44,295 nucleotides of DNA, taken from the sequence record MZ501070; one strand, 5' to 3'. The DNA is from Escherichia phage GeorgBuechner. Positions 3,470 through 44,295 of this stretch are shown piece after piece. A program made the translations under genes and the position numbers. Within the stretch, counting starts at the first letter, position 1; each line of letters begins with the position of its first letter. Under the pieces are notes generated by a model, which was given only the letters and a program-made list of their open reading frames with translations, was not told the DNA's origin and searched no databases.

Positions 3470-4556
3470 TCAACATTTGGCGGATCGAATGATTCGCCGT
3501 CACATCTTCACCCAGCGCCTGAGCAATGACCAGGCGCGGAGGGTGCTGGCTATGTGGGAGAAGTTCCGGCCCACATTACTGGGTAAGCTGACCGAGTTAC
3601 TTGATGGCAAAAAGTCCATGAACAACAAGGCACTTACCACACTGTTAACGCAACTCGACAAGACCGTAAAAACGGAACTGCGCGCCGAGTTTAAAGTGCT
3701 GGCGGAGAGCCTGCAGGAGTTCGCCGACACCGAGGCTGATTATCTCGCTGACACACTAACGGCAGCGATCCAGCCCGCTGTCGCCGTACCCGCTGTTGAA
3801 GTAGTTGGCGTTGTTACCGGCGCGCAGATTGCAGCGACGGCAATGAAAAACCCGTTCCAGGGTAATACTATGATGCAATGGCCTGATTCCCTTTCCGAGT
3901 GGACCAGGACGCAGATCGGCAATCAGGTGCGCGCCGGATTCATCCAGGGCAAGCCAACGATGGAAATTATCGCGGACGTGAGGCGCGCGCTCGGCGGGCG
4001 TAGTGCGCAAGCAATCGCAAGCGTTGTTAAGTCCGCGGTCAACCACTATGCGGCGACCGCCCGCGAATTAATGGTAAAAGCTAATGACGATATTCTCGAA
4101 GGTCGCCAATGGTTGGCTACATTGGACACTCATACTTCCCCTATGTGCCAGCTACGCGATCGCCTGTTTTATCCTGTTGACGTCACTCCCGACACCAAAG
4201 GCAAGCGCGGCGGGAAAGTGGTGGCGGGATCACAATATGGCGCTGGTCCGGGCAAGCTGCATTATTGCTGCCGTTCGACGGAGACGTGGAAAGTCAAAGG
4301 TATGGAAGATTGGCCCAGTGGTAAGCGTCCGGCACTGAAGGCTGACGCGGGCCGATTGCTTAGTGAGCAGGTCGACGCGCAAACTGATTTCTTCTCATGG
4401 GTGCAGCGCCAGCCGCGCCATATTCTGGAGGAATTATATGGGGTGCAGCGCGCCGATCAGATTATGCGCGGCGTGAAAGTGCCGAAGATGTTCACCGATA
4501 CTGGCGAACTAATGACTATTGCGCAGCTTAAAAACCGGGGGCTATGGCGTGATTAA
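3453..4556 (+). CDS. Head morphogenesis protein (Mu F / SPP1 gp7-like)
   Basis: 367 aa; contains ATLDTHTSPMCQLRD resembling the conserved Mu-F domain core; overlaps portal stop. Confidence 0.8.
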   Translation: MAKTINQHLADRMIRRHIFTQRLSNDQARRVLAMWEKFRPTLLGKLTELLDGKKSMNNKALTTLLTQLDKTVKTELRAEFKVLAESLQEFADTEADYLADTLTAAIQPAVAVPAVEVVGVVTGAQIAATAMKNPFQGNTMMQWPDSLSEWTRTQIGNQVRAGFIQGKPTMEIIADVRRALGGRSAQAIASVVKSAVNHYAATARELMVKANDDILEGRQWLATLDTHTSPMCQLRDRLFYPVDVTPDTKGKRGGKVVAGSQYGAGPGKLHYCCRSTETWKVKGMEDWPSGKRPALKADAGRLLSEQVDAQTDFFSWVQRQPRHILEELYGVQRADQIMRGVKVPKMFTDTGELMTIAQLKNRGLWRD

Positions 4557-4857
4557 GTATGCAGCGATTGGGTTGGTAATAGGTCTGGCGGTTGGATTCT
4601 GGCAGGGTGACTCCTACCGCACTGGCGTTGAGGCGAGAGCGGCGCAAGAAGCGCAAGCGAAAGCCCAACGGCAGCAAACTAAGGTTGTCGAGGGGGCCGT
4701 GCAGGCAGAACAGGCCCGCGACGTGGAATACCGGACTATCACGAAAGAGGTTGTAAAATATGTTACGCGTCCTAACCGTCCTGATTGCCGTTTTGATGAT
4801 GAGCGCGTGCGGATCAAGCAACGTGCCATCGACGCCGCTAACCGAGTCGGTTTATAG
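4519..4857 (+). CDS. i-spanin (Rz-like) candidate; start could be ATG 4519 or GTG 4549
   Basis: N-terminal TM segment IKYAAIGLVIGLAVGFW followed by Q/A/E-rich predicted coiled coil and C-terminal Cys; contains an embedded +1-frame lipoprotein ORF. Confidence 0.55.
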   Translation: MRSLKTGGYGVIKYAAIGLVIGLAVGFWQGDSYRTGVEARAAQEAQAKAQRQQTKVVEGAVQAEQARDVEYRTITKEVVKYVTRPNRPDCRFDDERVRIKQRAIDAANRVGL

Positions 4858-4990
4858 ACCTCCTTGCACCTTTGAGAATGCCTCGGCGGACCCAGACGAA
4901 GACTTGCTGGTTGATATTAAAAATATGGAGTGTGGTGCGAAGCTGAGGGCGCAAGTGCTGGATTTGCAGAAAATAATTCGGGGGCCGTGA
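4760..4990 (+). CDS. o-spanin (Rz1-like outer membrane lipoprotein) candidate, starts inside the i-spanin ORF in the +1 frame
   Basis: Signal peptide MLRVLTVLIAVLMMSAC with lipobox-like MSAC; +2 residue Gly; short Pro-containing mature part with Cys; stop lies in a terminator hairpin. Confidence 0.55.
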   Translation: MLRVLTVLIAVLMMSACGSSNVPSTPLTESVYRPPCTFENASADPDEDLLVDIKNMECGAKLRAQVLDLQKIIRGP

Positions 4991-21612: not shown

Positions 21613-21634
21613 AGGCCCCGAAAGGGGCCTATTT
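21613..21634. terminator. Bidirectional stem-loop between convergent genes
   Basis: AGGCCCC-gaaa-GGGGCCT; stop codon of the minus-strand lipoprotein gene lies at the edge of the stem. Confidence 0.5.
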
Positions 21635-21847
21635 GCAGGTTGTGCTTTTGAAATGGTCAACTGACACATACTGGAAGTTAAACGGGTATCCCGCCCTGAG
21701 CATTTTGTGGCCGCTAAAATCCGCGACCCCAAACACGGGGACTGAGTAATCCATGCCGCTATTCTGGTACGTCGCGTCGCAGACTTTAGCTGGCATGTTG
21801 GCACAACCGGACAAAAGAACTGCACAAATCATAATTAAAGTTTTCAT
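21629..21847 (-). CDS. Small lipoprotein, candidate receptor-blocking superinfection-exclusion protein (Llp/Cor-like)
   Basis: 72 aa from ATG 21845-21847 with SD AGGGGA; signal peptide MKTLIMICAVLLSGC with lipobox LLSGC; two further Cys in the mature part; convergent with tail genes and adjacent to the fibre gene. Confidence 0.6.
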   Translation of the reverse strand: MKTLIMICAVLLSGCANMPAKVCDATYQNSGMDYSVPVFGVADFSGHKMLRAGYPFNFQYVSVDHFKSTTCK

Positions 21848-36525: not shown

Positions 36526-38790
36526 ATGAGCTTAATTAAATTTGCGGTAACACGACCCGCTAAAAAAGGCGAAAAAGCCAGGGCGGAAAACTTCCAGATG
36601 ACAACCGATGAGTTTTTCGAATTTATCAATGATGCGAAAGAAATCTCCTCGGTGCATATCAACAAGACGGAAGATAAAGCCGAGTATGCGCGCCGCAAGC
36701 GTAAGGCCGATGGGATTGTGGCTTATACTCGTGACGGCTTACGTCGCAAGACCAGTGCGGTGGACCGCTCGATCCTGTTCTTCGATATAGACCGTACCGA
36801 CACCCGCACCTTACGCCGCTGCCGTAAGGCGTTCATCGACGCGGGGCTGGAACACGTATTTCACACCACTACCGGCGACCGCCACCCGCTGAAAGGCGGC
36901 ACGCGTTGCGCCCGTTTCCTGGTGCTCACCGATAGGCCTGTACCTGCTGAAGACCTGGGCCGCGTCCAGTATGCACTATTACACCAACTGGGCCTGTCAG
37001 ATGTGGACTTCGATGATTGTACGAAAGACACAAACCGCCTTATGTACCTGCCTCACCAGCAATCGGTTGTCAAGTGTCACTACGGCAAACGTGCCCGCGT
37101 CCGTCGTCTGCTTCGCCTGGCGGATAAGCTGGGAGTGGAAAAAGAGGAAGTACGACGCGAACTGACCCAGGGCGATGACGGCGTGGCGGACGGTATTCTG
37201 GATTGGTGCTTCCAGGCAGGATTCGAACCGCTGTCGTCCGGTCGTGGTTATGAAGTACCGTGCCCGAACGAACACCTGCACAGTGGTGAAGGGTCCACCG
37301 CAATCATGGTTAAGGATGGCGAGATCCGTTTCAAGTGTATGCACACCGGCAACGAGTGTTGCTCGGAACTGAACAGACACCAGCACCTGGCGCTACGTCT
37401 TATCGGGATCCCGGACCACCTGAACGTCGAACCGCACAACATGTCACGTAAGCAAATCGCCGCCATCCTCCCTGGACTGGACGACGAGGAAGTGGAATCG
37501 TGCTATGCGCATATCGTTGATGCGGTCGGAGACGGCGACGAGTACGGCGTATGTACCGACGCTGACCTGGATAACGAACCGGTCGCACTGTTCAGTAAGC
37601 ACGACCCGATCATAGAAGGCCTGGTCAACTTCAAATCGACCTGGTATATGGCTGGCGAATCGAACATCGGTAAATCGTTCTACGTGCTGGGGCAAATGGG
37701 TGCGGTTGCCGCGGGGATTCCGTTCGGCGGTGCGAAGGTCGTCCAGTCCCATTGCTTCTATTTCGACGCGGAAGGTGGCGAAGCCTCCAACCAGCGTAAG
37801 GAAGCATTGCAGATCAAATACGAGCACGACCTCGACAAGCTGCACATTATCGATCTGCAATCACGCGGCTGGGATATCACCAGCAAATCCGGCTTGCGTG
37901 AAGTTATCAGCTTCATCAACCGCACCGCTAACGGCGAACCGGTTGGCCTGGTGGCGTTCGACTCACTCAACCAGACGGTTGCGCTGCGGTCCGCCGATGC
38001 CAAACCGTTCGACGAGAACAACGCCAGCGATATGGGCGAAGTGGTCAAGGCGCTGAAGGCCATCGCGGAAAATACAGGCGGCAGTGCGGGCGTTATCCAC
38101 CACCCGGCGAAGGGTGCAAACGGCAGCAGATCTCCCCGTGGGTCCGGCGCGCTGCATGGCGCTGTCGATTCTGCGTTCTTCCTGGAGCAACCGGACGACA
38201 ATCAGCCGGGCCAATTGAACCTGTATCACGAAAAGGCACGTAACGGCATCAAGCAAGCGCCACGCGGATTCGTCCTGCTCAAGTGCAAGGTTAAGGTGGA
38301 TCTCCGCAAGTCCGAAGCGTTCGAGTCACACCAGTCCACCAGCACCGGGCCTGACTTCGGCGATGTGGTTGCCGGTTGGGACGTCAAGCCAATTGCATCC
38401 ACACCACGCGACGAGACTCTGTACCTCGTACCGGTCGCCCTGGCACCGTTCGCCATCGAACAGGCGAAGGCCGCGGGCAAAGCAGCAGTTAAGGAAGAGA
38501 ACGCAGCAGGACCGCGCAACGAAAAAGAGAAAGTGCTTTATGCGGCGCTGGAAAAACTGATGGAAGATAACCCGGACCATACCGGATTCAGCAAATCGGC
38601 AATTGTCCGCCAGGCTGGGCTTGCGAAAGGTGGCACATCGACGAAGGCAATTGACGATATGGTCGAGCGCGGAGTGCTAGGTTTTTATACCGATCCGCAC
38701 ACCGGGGCCATCTATGGGTCGTCGAATATCGTCATTAAAACGAATATACCAATCACGCTTTCTGCGACCGATGACGATTTAAAAGATTAA
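36526..38790 (+). CDS. DNA primase/helicase-like replication protein with P-loop ATPase domain
   Basis: 754 aa; Walker A GESNIGKS and Walker B-like VAFDSL in the central region; large N-terminal domain of primase type by position and size. Confidence 0.65.
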   Translation: MSLIKFAVTRPAKKGEKARAENFQMTTDEFFEFINDAKEISSVHINKTEDKAEYARRKRKADGIVAYTRDGLRRKTSAVDRSILFFDIDRTDTRTLRRCRKAFIDAGLEHVFHTTTGDRHPLKGGTRCARFLVLTDRPVPAEDLGRVQYALLHQLGLSDVDFDDCTKDTNRLMYLPHQQSVVKCHYGKRARVRRLLRLADKLGVEKEEVRRELTQGDDGVADGILDWCFQAGFEPLSSGRGYEVPCPNEHLHSGEGSTAIMVKDGEIRFKCMHTGNECCSELNRHQHLALRLIGIPDHLNVEPHNMSRKQIAAILPGLDDEEVESCYAHIVDAVGDGDEYGVCTDADLDNEPVALFSKHDPIIEGLVNFKSTWYMAGESNIGKSFYVLGQMGAVAAGIPFGGAKVVQSHCFYFDAEGGEASNQRKEALQIKYEHDLDKLHIIDLQSRGWDITSKSGLREVISFINRTANGEPVGLVAFDSLNQTVALRSADAKPFDENNASDMGEVVKALKAIAENTGGSAGVIHHPAKGANGSRSPRGSGALHGAVDSAFFLEQPDDNQPGQLNLYHEKARNGIKQAPRGFVLLKCKVKVDLRKSEAFESHQSTSTGPDFGDVVAGWDVKPIASTPRDETLYLVPVALAPFAIEQAKAAGKAAVKEENAAGPRNEKEKVLYAALEKLMEDNPDHTGFSKSAIVRQAGLAKGGTSTKAIDDMVERGVLGFYTDPHTGAIYGSSNIVIKTNIPITLSATDDDLKD

Positions 38791-40084: not shown

Positions 40085-40233
40085 CACCAATGCAAAGGGC
40101 ACTAATGGCGGGATTCTCGCAGAAGTTTATTTCAGTAGACGCCTGCATAGCTGATTATGAGATGGACGGCATCGCTACGGTATGCGATGGCGACTATAAG
40201 ACTGTTGACGAGATTGAGGAGACTGAGCAATGA
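40081..40233 (+). CDS. Possible small acidic protein (50 aa)
   Basis: ATG 40081 within repeated junction GGAGACTGAGCAAATGA; ends in the same junction sequence at 40216-40233; not in the ORF track. Confidence 0.3.
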   Translation: MTPMQRALMAGFSQKFISVDACIADYEMDGIATVCDGDYKTVDEIEETEQ

Positions 40234-40784
40234 GATTACTATTCCGCCGCAAATCAGACGGGCGCATACTGAAGCCGATCCAGACCCTGGATTCCTACGT
40301 CCGCTTGCACCACGCGGCAAGCGATCGGGTATTCCGCGCATCGAAGGGCACATTGCCGCAGTTCTTCGAAGTCCTCACACACGATATCGAGCGGGGCGAT
40401 GTTCTGCGTGATATTCGCGACGGGCAATTGTGGGTCGTGGAGCACACCCACCGGCACGGCTTGCGGTTGAAGTCCGGCATCTTGCTAAAGGGTATGACGT
40501 ACTTCGGACTAATCAACTACGAGCGAGTGGGCCGCAAATACAGCCTTCGCAAACACCAGCAGCATGAGCGCGTGGAGTTCCGCAAGTCGCAGCCCGCGTA
40601 TGCCACCTACGACGCGAGCAAAGTGCAGGAGCCGATCCGCCAGGCCACGCGTGAGATAGTCAATCGCTTTGATGCCGTGACGAATGCACAGCGCCAGGCG
40701 CGGGAATACGGTGTGGGATTTATCCGTGTCGAACCAGACGGCAGCATGAAGGCCATCGACCCGCGCTCGGTGATTCTGAAATGA
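40230..40784 (+). CDS. Hypothetical protein
   Basis: 184 aa ORF, ATGA-coupled to the upstream small ORF. Confidence 0.5.
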   Translation: MRLLFRRKSDGRILKPIQTLDSYVRLHHAASDRVFRASKGTLPQFFEVLTHDIERGDVLRDIRDGQLWVVEHTHRHGLRLKSGILLKGMTYFGLINYERVGRKYSLRKHQQHERVEFRKSQPAYATYDASKVQEPIRQATREIVNRFDAVTNAQRQAREYGVGFIRVEPDGSMKAIDPRSVILK

Positions 40785-40927
40785 GTGCGTCTATCCGTGA
40801 TATGCTCATGCACAACCGCTTTGAGATAGGCGGTCGGGTGTTTCGCAATTACTTCGTGGCGCGTGCATGGGCGCGCCATATTGGCAAACCGGAAGGGGCA
40901 ATTCGATGCTATACGTCTTCGCGGTAG
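40781..40927 (+). CDS. Possible small protein (48 aa)
   Basis: ATGA overlap with preceding gene; not in the ORF track. Confidence 0.25.
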   Translation: MSASIRDMLMHNRFEIGGRVFRNYFVARAWARHIGKPEGAIRCYTSSR

Positions 40928-41007
40928 TATGTGGCGGTAGTCTGGCGGCCCTGGTGCTGTTGGCGTCGGTTATTAGTCTGGTTAAATACCTATGGGGCAG
41001 ATTATGA
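40906..41007 (+). CDS. Possible single-pass membrane peptide (33 aa)
   Basis: MLYVFAVVCGGSLAALVLLASVISLVKYLWGRL; stop overlaps next start as ATGA. Confidence 0.3.
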   Translation: MLYVFAVVCGGSLAALVLLASVISLVKYLWGRL

Positions 41008-41291
41008 TTCATGATGTGATTTATTGGTTTGGTTTGATCTGCGGGCTATGCCTGCTTACCGCGGTGCTGTTGGGCATCCTGATGTTCGTCGTATGGCCTG
41101 CAGTGGAAGCCGCCAGTATTACCCGCATGACGTTCGAGGTATACAAGCGCCGCGGGATCACGGAGCACCCGACCAGGTTGCGCATGTGGTGGCTGTGGTA
41201 TCGGGATATGATAGGCGGGCGAACATTCGAGGCCGTCCGGTCGAGTGGATGGGAGTGGAAAGGCGTCGGCAAGTGGTCCATTTTCGATTAA
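41004..41291 (+). CDS. Small membrane protein
   Basis: 95 aa from ATG 41004 (track start 40992); N-terminal TM IYWFGLICGLCLLTAVLLGILMFVVW; Trp-rich C-terminal part. Confidence 0.45.
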   Translation: MIHDVIYWFGLICGLCLLTAVLLGILMFVVWPAVEAASITRMTFEVYKRRGITEHPTRLRMWWLWYRDMIGGRTFEAVRSSGWEWKGVGKWSIFD

Positions 41292-41310
41292 TTATGCAAG
41301 CGTGATATAG

Positions 41311-41343
41311 TCCCAGTGAGATAAAACTTACTGGGACTTTTTT
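41311..41343 (+). terminator. Stem-loop plus T-run immediately upstream of the first lysis-cassette gene
   Basis: TCCCAGT-12 nt loop-ACTGGGA followed by CTTTTTT and then ATG 41344; preceded by TGaTATAGT extended -10-like element at 41303-41311. Confidence 0.5.
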
Positions 41344-41634
41344 ATGGATAAGCTAAACGAGTGGTTATTCGCCCTCGCGTGTCTGGCTGGCGGCTTCGTA
41401 GGCGCACGCATTCATGGCGAGGCTACGAAAGGGCCGCTAAACTTCGTTTTATATATCGTAGTTGGCTTCCTGTGTGCCATATTTGGTGCGCCAGCTATCG
41501 CCGAGTGGGCAGGCTTATCTGGCGAGCGCACTGTCGCCGGTTTGGGCTTCGTAACTGCAATCTTCTGGATGCCAATAGCCGCCCGGATCAGGGAGACTAT
41601 TGAGTCGTTCCGACTTCCGGGGGGCGCAAAATGA
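41344..41634 (+). CDS. Holin-like membrane protein (three predicted TM segments)
   Basis: 96 aa; hydrophobic stretches WLFALACLAGGFVGA, FVLYIVVGFLCAIFGAPAIA, GLGFVTAIFWMPIAA; positioned two genes upstream of endolysin. Confidence 0.45.
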   Translation: MDKLNEWLFALACLAGGFVGARIHGEATKGPLNFVLYIVVGFLCAIFGAPAIAEWAGLSGERTVAGLGFVTAIFWMPIAARIRETIESFRLPGGAK

Positions 41635-41876
41635 TTATCTCCGTCCTGTTGTTTGTTATCATAGGGGCTTCGTCCCTGTTTAACGTGTATGCGCCGTCCG
41701 TCCAGGATGGCATTTTAGGCCGGGTGTTATATCTGCTAACGGCGATGATCTGCGTTATCGGATTGTTGCAAACAGGAGACGTATCTGACACCACCTGGAC
41801 CGCGTTAATCTGGCTGTTTGCATTGCGCACGCTGCGTAATGCTGTTTTGAATGGGGTAAAACATGCGATTCAGTGA
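41631..41876 (+). CDS. Holin/antiholin-like membrane protein
   Basis: 81 aa; TM stretches MIISVLLFVIIGASSLF, VLYLLTAMICVIGLL, WTALIWLFAL; overlaps endolysin start. Confidence 0.45.
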   Translation: MIISVLLFVIIGASSLFNVYAPSVQDGILGRVLYLLTAMICVIGLLQTGDVSDTTWTALIWLFALRTLRNAVLNGVKHAIQ

Positions 41877-42354
41877 CAACGGTCTACGATTTACGGCAGC
41901 ATGGGAGACGTTTAGCCCGGTGCCGTATTTCGCGACTAAGAAAGAGCAGGCCCGCGGCCTGTACACCTGGGGTTATGGTCACACTGGCACTAACCCGCCT
42001 CGAAGCATTACCCGCGCGGAAGCGCTGGAGCTACTTAAGCGCGATGTGGCGTATGCTGAGGACTGGGTGAACAAATACGCGCATAAGAGCATTAACCAGG
42101 CGCAATTCGACGCGCTGGTGGACCTGGTTATCAATGCAGGTCAAGGTCCGATCGTACCGGACCATATTGCCAATGACTTCGACGACGCGGTGCGCTTGGG
42201 CGACTGGGCAAAGGTCCGTGCTACGCTGCCACAGTTCCGCAAGCAAGGCGGGGAAGTGCTTAAGGGTCTGGTCCGTCGAGCAATCGGCAGACAGGCTTTA
42301 TTCGATGGAAAGCAGTGGGACGTTGCCGAGAAGATCGGACGTAACGCAGCATAA
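41863..42354 (+). CDS. Endolysin (GH24 lysozyme/muramidase type)
   Basis: 163 aa; N-terminal Glu region (AAWETFSP) and TWGYGHTG segment typical of T4/lambda-type lysozymes; no N-terminal signal-anchor. Confidence 0.8.
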   Translation: MRFSDNGLRFTAAWETFSPVPYFATKKEQARGLYTWGYGHTGTNPPRSITRAEALELLKRDVAYAEDWVNKYAHKSINQAQFDALVDLVINAGQGPIVPDHIANDFDDAVRLGDWAKVRATLPQFRKQGGEVLKGLVRRAIGRQALFDGKQWDVAEKIGRNAA

Positions 42355-42370
42355 TACGGGGTAACACAGT

Positions 42371-42784
42371 ATGTTAAGAAGTATTCTTGATCATAACGCC
42401 GACGCGATTGCTGCGCTGGCTAAAACAGAAGACCCAGGCGCTCGCGCTATCATCGCGGACACTATCAGCCACGCGGGGGTCTTCGACGCGAAGCTGCCTA
42501 GCCCGCCGGAAAGTAAGCCGGTGACAAGTGCCACCGTAACAATCACACCGGAATCCGCCGCAGTTGGTGCGAAGGCCGCCGCTTCTGTTGCCGTCTTGCC
42601 ATCCGACGCGACTAACAAGGCAGGGAAGTGGGTGCCGTCGAATCCGGCCTGTGCGGCAATCGATCAGACTACCGGCGAAATCACAGCCCAAACGGCAGGT
42701 AGCGCCCACATCTTTTGGGTGGCCTCCGATGGTAGCGGGGTGATAGCGTCCGCCATCTTCACCGTGACGGAAGCAGGAGAATAA
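42371..42784 (+). CDS. Hypothetical protein with possible Ig-like (Big_2-type) domain
   Basis: 137 aa; Ala/Thr/Ser-rich beta-like C-terminal half ATVTITPESAAVGAKAAASVAVLP...; followed by terminator. Confidence 0.4.
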   Translation: MLRSILDHNADAIAALAKTEDPGARAIIADTISHAGVFDAKLPSPPESKPVTSATVTITPESAAVGAKAAASVAVLPSDATNKAGKWVPSNPACAAIDQTTGEITAQTAGSAHIFWVASDGSGVIASAIFTVTEAGE

Positions 42785-42788
42785 AACC

Positions 42789-42816
42789 ACAAGCCCGGTT
42801 AATTCCGGGCTTTTTA
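42789..42816 (+). terminator. Rho-independent terminator after the lysis-region operon
   Basis: AAGCCCGG-ttaatt-CCGGGCTT followed by TTTATT. Confidence 0.7.
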
Positions 42817-42826
42817 TTGCTTGACT

Positions 42827-42860
42827 CGCAACCAATTATCAGACTATACTGCGACCAATC
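42827..42860. promoter_or_regulatory. Tandem pair CGCAACCAAT / GCGACCAAT upstream of a strong SD
   Basis: CGCAACCAATtatcagactatactGCGACCAATcaACGAGAGGAG followed by ATG 42881. Confidence 0.5.
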
Positions 42861-42880: not shown

Positions 42881-42961
42881 ATGGCACGTAATGATATTTG
42901 GGTATTGGCTATCTGGTCCGCCGCAGTATTTATCGGTATGGTTATTTGCGAATTGCTATAA
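42881..42961 (+). CDS. Possible 26 aa hydrophobic peptide
   Basis: MARNDIWVLAIWSAAVFIGMVICELL; strong SD GAGAGGAG 9 nt upstream; not in the ORF track. Confidence 0.3.
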   Translation: MARNDIWVLAIWSAAVFIGMVICELL

Positions 42962-44176: not shown

Positions 44177-44212
44177 AAGCCACCCAGCCTGCCGATTTGG
44201 TGGGCTTTTTTG
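44177..44212 (+). terminator. Probable terminator after the last gene of the window
   Basis: Imperfect stem AAGCCACCC ... GGTGGGCTT followed by TTTTTT. Confidence 0.5.
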
Positions 44213-44295
44213 TGCCTGTTATAATCCACCTTAGATGGCAGGGCCGTCTCCTATGTTGCCGATGGTCGGCGCATATGCACAAAAGGGCTTATATC

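Follow-up and report, generated by a model that had tools for sequence, protein, structure and literature searches.

Two probable accessory membrane genes upstream of a holin-like pair with a proposed hairpin gate: a probable two-unit organization in Escherichia phage GeorgBuechner

Escherichia phage GeorgBuechner (record MZ501070; the window is the whole stretch of 44,295 nucleotides analyzed here) carries four consecutive open reading frames (ORFs) for small membrane proteins, ORF1 to ORF4, upstream of its endolysin gene. Our analysis indicates that this region is probably an ordinary lysis module preceded by two accessory membrane genes, the two forming functionally separate units. The lysis module would consist of ORF3, ORF4, the endolysin gene and a gene encoding a Big_2 domain (41344-42784), and ORF1 and ORF2 (40906-41291) would not be lysis genes but the end of the upstream replication/nin-type operon. 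An earlier note on this DNA had described all four genes as one overlapping chain before the lysozyme gene. We abandon the reading of the four as a single lysis cassette because a terminator splits them, the ORF2 family is found elsewhere away from lysis genes, ORF2 is deleted in the related phage Pubbukkers, and most relatives lack ORF1. The features on which the argument turns are these:

40906-41007, plus strand: ORF1, 33 amino acids (aa), single-helix micro-gene
41004-41291, plus strand: ORF2, 95 aa, bitopic membrane protein, phrog_2531
41303-41311, plus strand: candidate promoter TGATATAGT, extended -10-like, overlapping the 5' arm of the hairpin
41309-41343, plus strand: intrinsic terminator (hairpin 41309-41338 plus T-run), from a terminator scan and folding
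41344-41634, plus strand: ORF3, 96 aa, holin-like, phrog_2359
41631-41876, plus strand: ORF4, 81 aa, holin-like, phrog_2508
41863-42354, plus strand: endolysin, GH24 phage lysozyme (PF00959, E 3.5e-21; phrog_7)

All four ORFs lie where the earlier note had placed them, and their chosen starts, which are kept in relatives, are those with a Shine-Dalgarno-like GGGG run. Judged by Kyte-Doolittle and Hessa-type hydrophobicity scales, each encodes at least one hydrophobic helix, as had been proposed. The single transmembrane (TM) helix assigned to each of the first two proteins was also borne out: ORF1 has one strong TM segment and ORF2 one very strong N-terminal TM helix (dG19 -4.2), with 8 Trp in the whole protein. 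The three TM helices counted for each of the other two are plausible, not firm, since ORF3 has a strong segment at residues 34-52, a short Gly/Ala-rich one at 7-21 and a weaker third at 64-82, and ORF4 has strong segments at 1-19 and 28-46 and a weaker third at 55-72. The ATGA-type overlaps said to chain all four genes link ORF1 to ORF2 (41004-41007) and ORF3 to ORF4 (41631-41634); ORF2 and ORF3 are instead separated by a 52-nucleotide (nt) gap that holds the terminator. The ORF4 and lysozyme genes overlap by 14 nt. Since a strong TM segment was found in just seven of 62 crudely called genes of at least 45 aa, and four of the seven fall in one 2-kb stretch (40.9-43.0 kb), the clustering of TM genes is real; the chance of four consecutive TM genes is ~0.007 by a rough estimate.

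The window belongs to a Dhillonvirus (HK578-like E. coli siphophage) and shares 88-93% nucleotide identity with many records. A 2.8-kb query around ORF1-ORF4 gave matches in 152 phage records (80-99% nucleotide identity), nearly all of them Escherichia or Shigella Dhillonvirus (HK578, SSL-2009a, JL1, SO-1 and BASEL isolates), and over the lysis region the window is 88-100% identical to many records with an annotated lysis module. ORF1-ORF4 occupy the right end of the rightward replication/early block, in which the helicase-primase gene (36526-38790) is followed by small genes.

The boundary between the two units is the intrinsic terminator in the ORF2-ORF3 gap, which has a stem of 12 bp, a loop of 6 nt and a T-run reaching the ATG of ORF3. 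Its hairpin folds at -24.8 to -29 kcal/mol (z -4.8 to -6.1 relative to shuffled sequences) and is annotated as a terminator in record PTXU06; Rfam gave only sub-threshold, terminator-like matches. In an intergenic survey of 23 sequences (the window and 22 related loci) both stems were invariant and the loop bases alone varied, within flanking genes that diverge by 10-20%. The sole Shine-Dalgarno-like motif of ORF3, GGGA located 7 nt 5' of the ATG, lies within the 3' arm of this hairpin. Jerseyvirus SETP3 (z -6.9) and Kagunavirus K1ind1 (z -3.9) also have a hairpin immediately before their first holin-like gene, equivalent to this one without being homologous to it; that of SETP3 is a T-run terminator adjoining the start codon, as in the window, and that of K1ind1 sequesters a GGAGG.

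These properties suggest that the hairpin gates the lysis module. By ending at the ORF3 start codon and hiding GGGA, it would cause early and middle transcripts either to stop there or to go untranslated, and the lysis genes would be expressed by read-through or from a promoter at 41303-41311. Only two sites in the window match TGNTATAGT, of which the candidate promoter, TGATATAGT, is one, and its segment is invariant in 23 of 23 sequences. Transcripts initiated there would start inside the hairpin and thus lack its 5' arm, escaping both termination and masking of the ribosome-binding site. A similar element, TGTTATAAT, is found at 44217-44225, within 10 nt 3' of another terminator (44186-44206 plus T-run), and the terminator that ends the lysis unit (42791-42812) also has a promoter-like site 3' of it, at 42821; operon boundaries in this phage thus appear to be tight terminator-promoter junctions. 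Expression of the lambda holin gene is gated by the sdi stem-loop and by the tR' terminator upstream of S. As in lambda, a stable hairpin containing the ribosome-binding site is positioned just 5' of the first holin-like gene, and a terminator parts early from lysis genes. Unlike lambda, a single hairpin adjoining the start codon would act both as terminator and as Shine-Dalgarno sequestrator, a mechanism that we infer from its position and fold. No Q-type antiterminator was identified.

Downstream of this hairpin, ORF3 and ORF4 match phrog_2359 (E 1e-32) and phrog_2508 (E 1e-27), both labelled 'holin', and their GenBank labels are 'class II holin-like' and 'class I holin-like', respectively. 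The trio of phrog_2359, phrog_2508 and endolysin is kept in Dhillonvirus, Kagunavirus and Jerseyvirus, and PHROG scans located it as K1ind1 ORF40-42 and SETP3 ORF53-55, the ORF3 homologues being K1ind1 ORF40 and SETP3 ORF53 and those of ORF4 K1ind1 ORF41 and SETP3 ORF54. Gene order, PHROG families and the ATGA overlap are the same in these two modules and in HK578 gp55-gp57, all of which likewise have a hairpin in front; nothing substantive distinguishes the window from them, and in each the holin assignment is an annotation. By tblastn, relatives of ORF3 were found in 288 phage records and those of ORF4 in 638, including Jerseyvirus and Kagunavirus. Residues W7, L8, A12, L14, G16, G17 and V19 in the first segment of ORF3 are invariant across genera, as are S15, N18, D26-G27 and G30-R31 of ORF4, whose C-terminal tails are basic (strongly so in SETP3 and K1ind1). 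For ORF3, a ratio of nonsynonymous to synonymous substitution (dN/dS) of ~0.1 indicates purifying selection, and the gene encodes 96 aa and keeps its ATGA overlap intact in 21 of 22 loci; ORF4 is full-length in all 22. The exception is slur05, in which the G6 run at window positions 41617-41622 is G5, so that the ORF3 ending is altered and the frame continues across the ORF4 start to 110 aa; the difference may be an error in homopolymer sequencing, or the run a natural site of slippage. A 165-aa 'holin' annotated in McMelon (locus L018, 1693-2190) was rejected as a variant form: it is an alternative-frame ORF running into ORF4 after loss of a stop codon, and because the normal 96-aa ORF3 is intact there, we regard it as a gene-calling artefact.

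The size, TM content and charged C-termini of ORF3 and ORF4 (tails RIRETIESFRLPGGAK and RTLRNAVLNGVKHAIQ) are those of holins, and both genes share one transcription unit with the adjacent endolysin gene, the next terminator being found only at 42791. A lambda-type dual start was absent from both, since each has a single N-terminal Met (MDKLNEW... in ORF3 and MIISVL... in ORF4) and the next Met is at residue 76 of ORF3 and 39 of ORF4; in this they differ from lambda S105/S107. The endolysin has no TM-like or N-terminal signal-anchor-release (SAR) segment on either hydrophobicity scale and would consequently need a holin that passes a soluble enzyme. This does not fit a pinholin/SAR-endolysin system, and the resemblance of the first ORF3 segment to a SAR helix is confined to its composition. 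The earlier proposal of a holin and an antiholin or pinholin upstream of the endolysin is thus upheld as far as a conserved holin-like pair is concerned, and a pinholin system is not supported.

We propose that ORF3 and ORF4 jointly provide the holin activity needed for release of the soluble GH24 endolysin, after which distant spanins would disrupt the outer membrane. By a slight preference, ORF4 may be the hole-former and ORF3 a co-holin or a regulator or timing partner, because ORF4 adjoins the endolysin gene and has a basic, presumably cytoplasmic tail and conserved polar residues in its first helix; the first helix of ORF3, short, Gly/Ala-rich and strongly conserved, makes it the candidate partner. 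It is equally possible that the two form a two-component holin in which both are needed. Two-protein holin arrangements include the two-component system of SPP1 (gp24.1/gp26) and the holins with a separate antiholin of P1 (LydA/LydB) and P2 (Y/LysA). Like these, ORF3 and ORF4 are adjacent, co-inherited small membrane genes at the endolysin gene, for which a role in timing is plausible; unlike them, they show no detectable sequence relationship to the SPP1, P1 or P2 proteins. The comparison with such systems also draws on PMC9025707.

The spanins are encoded as an overlapped pair in the head-morphogenesis region, ~37 kb from the holin-like and endolysin genes:

4519-4857, plus strand: i-spanin, phrog_2536 (E 5.5e-36), 'Rz-like spanin'
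4760-4990, plus strand: o-spanin, phrog_5672 (E 2e-24), 'Rz-like spanin', lipobox MSAC

HK578, JL1, SSL-2009a and SO-1 have been placed in the 'Jersey' family of overlapped spanins (Kongari et al. 2018, PMC6139136). With the spanins at 4519-4990, neither ORF1 nor ORF2 is needed to complete the lysis set. A spanin function for ORF1 or ORF2 was also considered and discarded, as no ORF with a lipobox is present in or near 40906-41291.

The second line of evidence for separate units comes from the family to which ORF2 belongs. ORF2 matches phrog_2531 with an E value of 1.3e-36 (residues 1-95 on positions 1-96 of the 100-position profile); remote members and SETP3 ORF62 hit this profile too. Close relatives (at least 68% identity) are confined to Dhillonviruses, and a profile search of 1.84 billion representatives recovered 30 proteins at E <= 0.001, nearly all of 88-128 aa. 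The family is characterized by an N-terminal helix, the motif WPAVEAxS(I/L)TR at the helix end, GRxF, and WxGVGxW near the C-terminus; ORF2 shares length, helix, motifs and predicted fold with the phrog_2531 members SO-1 gp53, SETP3 ORF62 and phiMAM1 MAM_091. Comparison of the window with SP1, Bas83 and CHD5UKE2 gave a dN/dS of ~0.4 for the TM part and 0.07-0.12 for the C-terminal part. An AlphaFold2 model built on a diverse alignment (pLDDT 95.1, pTM 0.77), which replaced one from a shallow Dhillonvirus-only alignment (pLDDT 67), contains a helix at residues 2-50 (membrane span and stalk), a helix at 58-69 and a three-stranded sheet at 78-93. Foldseek found nothing in the PDB at E <= 0.001 and PDB profile searches were empty; the best Foldseek matches in BFVD were uncharacterized proteins of phiEa2809, STP07 and V18.

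Because of a positive-inside charge bias over 26 family members (3 K/R and 20 D/E in the N-terminal flank; 66 K/R and 32 D/E in the 20 residues after the helix), the conserved ~65-aa Trp-rich basic domain of ORF2 is predicted to be cytoplasmic (N-out/C-in), an orientation opposite to that of i-spanins and T4 RI. No Cys is conserved across the 26 members. ORF2 would thus hold this domain at the inner membrane on its cytoplasmic side, where it would probably act on a host or phage partner. One metagenomic family member, P0037 (157 aa), is an in-frame fusion that lacks the ORF2 helix: the N-terminal part of a 184-aa upstream protein, a homologue of the product of window positions 40230-40784 (phrog_10243), is joined to the ~50 C-terminal residues of ORF2. 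If real, this fusion would fit a cytoplasmic ORF2 domain, and it could also reflect a defective genome or an assembly artefact.

The genomic contexts of ORF2 homologues, obtained through tblastn and contig look-ups, place the family among early genes. In Jerseyvirus the homologue follows NinH, 1.7 kb downstream of the endolysin gene; in phiMAM1 (Ackermannviridae) it adjoins an acyl carrier protein gene among uncharacterized genes; and its surroundings in vB_EcoM-720R4, as in 42 of 5426 E. coli genomes, are an early region of prophage type, with EaE and exonuclease VIII close by. On the four metagenomic contigs it variously comes after helicase/primase or primase-polymerase genes and NinX, precedes RusA/Q or terminase genes, or sits among uncharacterized genes. 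The seven contexts outside Dhillonvirus (three phage records and four metagenomic contigs) are all early, replication or nin-type regions, and in none of the seven is the gene beside a holin/endolysin pair; only Dhillonvirus has a phrog_2531 gene directly before holin-like genes, sometimes with ORF1 at its 5' end. Moreover, ORF2 is evidently dispensable for propagation, since Pubbukkers (locus L022, 1207-1345) is a sequenced isolate without it. In this phage a deletion between copies of an 8-nt direct repeat, GGCGTCGG, which occurs in the window at 40961-40968 (in ORF1) and 41261-41268 (near the 3' end of ORF2), has removed almost the whole of ORF2 together with the remainder of ORF1; what is left is a 34-aa hybrid ORF.

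These observations bear on whether ORF2, possibly with ORF1, is instead an antiholin made early to hold ORF3 and ORF4 inactive, the four genes being one lysis system. Essentially all Dhillonviruses do have ORF2 immediately before the holin-like genes, loss of an antiholin would be tolerable and is consistent with the Pubbukkers deletion, and the size and layout of ORF2 (an N-terminal helix and a small domain) loosely recall T4 RI. We nevertheless consider this quite improbable: the terminator lies between ORF2 and the holin-like genes, Jerseyvirus has the same holin pair with its ORF2 homologue by NinH, and the family follows replication genes in Ackermannviridae, E. coli prophage-like elements and other phages. 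In addition, the predicted cytoplasmic domain and the very hydrophobic, non-SAR anchor differ from RI-type antiholins, which have a weakly hydrophobic SAR anchor and a periplasmic effector domain, and for these reasons an antiholin of the T4 RI type was rejected for ORF2. ORF1 and ORF2 were likewise rejected as holins, both being upstream of the terminator, with ORF2 homologues found away from lysis genes, ORF2 deleted in one phage and ORF1 absent from most.

A role for ORF1, ORF2 or both as early membrane-acting superinfection-exclusion or host-takeover factors would account for several of their properties. They are small, dispensable and variably present inner-membrane proteins ending an early/middle operon, the ORF2 family occurs in E. 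coli prophages, as do many exclusion genes, and its helix evolves fast while its domain is conserved. Such a role is unlikely all the same, since PHROG, PADLOC, Pfam and NCBIfam gave no match to a known exclusion or defence family such as Cor, Imm or Sie (scans of ORF1-ORF4 with the last three returned no meaningful match of any kind), the conserved domain is predicted to face the cytoplasm, away from an incoming phage, and the phage already has a recognized exclusion factor in a Cor-type lipoprotein encoded near the tail-fibre genes:

21629-21847, minus strand: Cor-type lipoprotein, 72 aa, phrog_1119 (E 1.5e-27)

The same contexts could point to ORF2 as a membrane anchor for phage DNA or replication proteins, comparable to phi29 p16.7, as the family recurs right after helicase, primase and primase-polymerase genes and among nin genes, and in the window ORF2 likewise comes after the helicase-primase gene. 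Its domain, basic, aromatic-rich and predicted cytoplasmic, is carried on a helical stalk, and the homologue in vB_EcoS-B2 has a pI of 9.7 (PMC5945888). We give this idea little credence: no similarity of fold or sequence to p16.7 or to any DNA-binding domain was detected, ORF2 is dispensable in Pubbukkers, and the argument from context carries little weight, unrelated small genes being abundant in early regions. If ORF1 and ORF2 do have an activity within the accessory unit that we favor, exclusion or host takeover, then membrane-associated replication, then cytoplasmic holin control are possible, roughly in that order. That ORF2 performs a new early-phase function at the membrane with ORF1 as its membrane partner, be it as a replication organizer, in a new mode of exclusion or anti-defence, or in controlling the holins from the cytoplasmic side, seems to us a rather speculative proposal.

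ORF1 sits on an exact 98-nt insertion/deletion at the 5' end of ORF2, as seen in an alignment of 17 loci. In genomes without the insert, the GGGG run and the ATG at the ORF1 position start ORF2 (ATG YTA CAC GAT...); in genomes with it, the same ATG opens the 33-codon ORF1, and ORF2 restarts at the ATGA overlap, preceded by a second GGGGCA motif. Of the 152 Dhillonvirus records, 58 carry the segment at a coverage of at least 80%, and its presence is independent of the ORF2 helix allele, which implies repeated gain, loss or recombination. ORF1 would accordingly be an optional single-helix micro-protein, translationally coupled to ORF2 and probably N-out/C-in with the C-terminal sequence KYLWGRL; it has no PHROG, Pfam or PADLOC match. 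The alleles of SP1, Bas83 and CHD5UKE2, with 78-80% nucleotide identity, keep the 33 codons, the stop and the ATGA overlap, and the 22 differences are distributed 11/2/9 over the codon positions, with all replacements conservative (V/I, F/L, S/G, R/K). This pattern supports a real, selected TM micro-gene.

Whether ORF1 might instead be a non-functional by-product of the 98-nt insertion, or of a partial duplication at the ORF2 start, has to be weighed against that pattern. It is absent from ~60% of relatives, is broken in McMelon by a frameshift from a 13-nt duplication, persists only as a remnant in ZCEC11, is partly deleted in Pubbukkers and is left unannotated in many GenBank records. A weak likeness of ORF1 to the ORF2 helix was obtained in a test for duplication with some alleles (p 0.005-0.008), significance being confined to one allele pair and not reproduced with others. 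A by-product is doubtful, however, since alleles differing at 22 of 99 nt keep frame, length, stop and overlap, only 2 of the 22 differences fall at second codon positions (binomial p ~0.009), and the Shine-Dalgarno-like run and ATG used by ORF2 in insert-free genomes pass to ORF1.

Several points weigh against the division into a lysis module and an accessory pair. On the lysis side, the 'holin' label of phrog_2359 and phrog_2508 is an annotation passed among genome records, and in the literature we found genome-annotation papers only, which repeat that label, and no functional work on any of the four proteins. Neither ORF3 nor ORF4 belongs to a curated holin family (no Pfam or NCBIfam holin match at E <= 1 for any of ORF1-ORF4), PDB sequence and profile searches with both families gave no match, and the third helix of each is marginal on simple hydrophobicity scales. 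At the boundary, the proposed promoter has a poor -35 element (2-3 of 6 positions), the TATA-like element of SETP3 lies upstream of its hairpin without overlapping it, and terminators are often leaky, so that co-transcription of ORF2 with the holin-like genes would be possible. On the accessory side, ORF2 is retained directly upstream of the holins in nearly all Dhillonviruses, so that a lysis-timing role in this genus is conceivable, and the case for ORF1 as a selected gene rests on a few divergent alleles, with one control frame showing a similar dN/dS.

The lysis unit ends with two further features:

42371-42784, plus strand: last gene of the lysis unit, 137 aa, phrog_11068 over residues 1-48 and a C-terminal Big_2 domain (PF02368, E 1e-8)
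42791-42812, 3' of the Big_2 gene: lysis-unit terminator, from the terminator scan

One record labels phrog_11068 'lysozyme downstream ORF'; in the product of 42371-42784 it is fused to the immunoglobulin-like Big_2 domain, and phage Sponge has a 55-aa gene at this position. Just past the terminator lies a fifth small membrane ORF (42881-42961), whose product, MARNDIWVLAIWSAAVFIGMVICELL, is a peptide of 26 aa with a single helix. The Shine-Dalgarno sequence of this ORF, GAGAGGAG, is strong, and a good sigma-70-like promoter lies upstream (TTGACT-18-TATACT, 42821-42850). A strict sequence pattern, which may miss variants, detected the ORF in 4 of 17 related loci, and the C-terminus of the peptide varies.

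The finding is in large part ordinary, as the holin pair is already covered by GenBank annotation, and the residual interest lies in the phrog_2531 family, the dual holin-like pair and the compact hairpin gate. For annotation, it means that the lysis system of these phages is two holin-like genes, an endolysin gene and distant spanin genes, and that ORF1 and ORF2 are not to be counted in it by position alone. The phrog_2359/phrog_2508 pair is common to hundreds of therapeutic-candidate coliphages and Salmonella phages, for which it would be useful to decide between a two-component holin and a holin plus antiholin. The hairpin, as a terminator, a mask of the ribosome-binding site and possibly a site of promoter overlap, would be a compact and testable gate for the timing of lysis, and phrog_2531 offers a clean, structurally well-predicted target for the role of a common early membrane-tethered phage protein.

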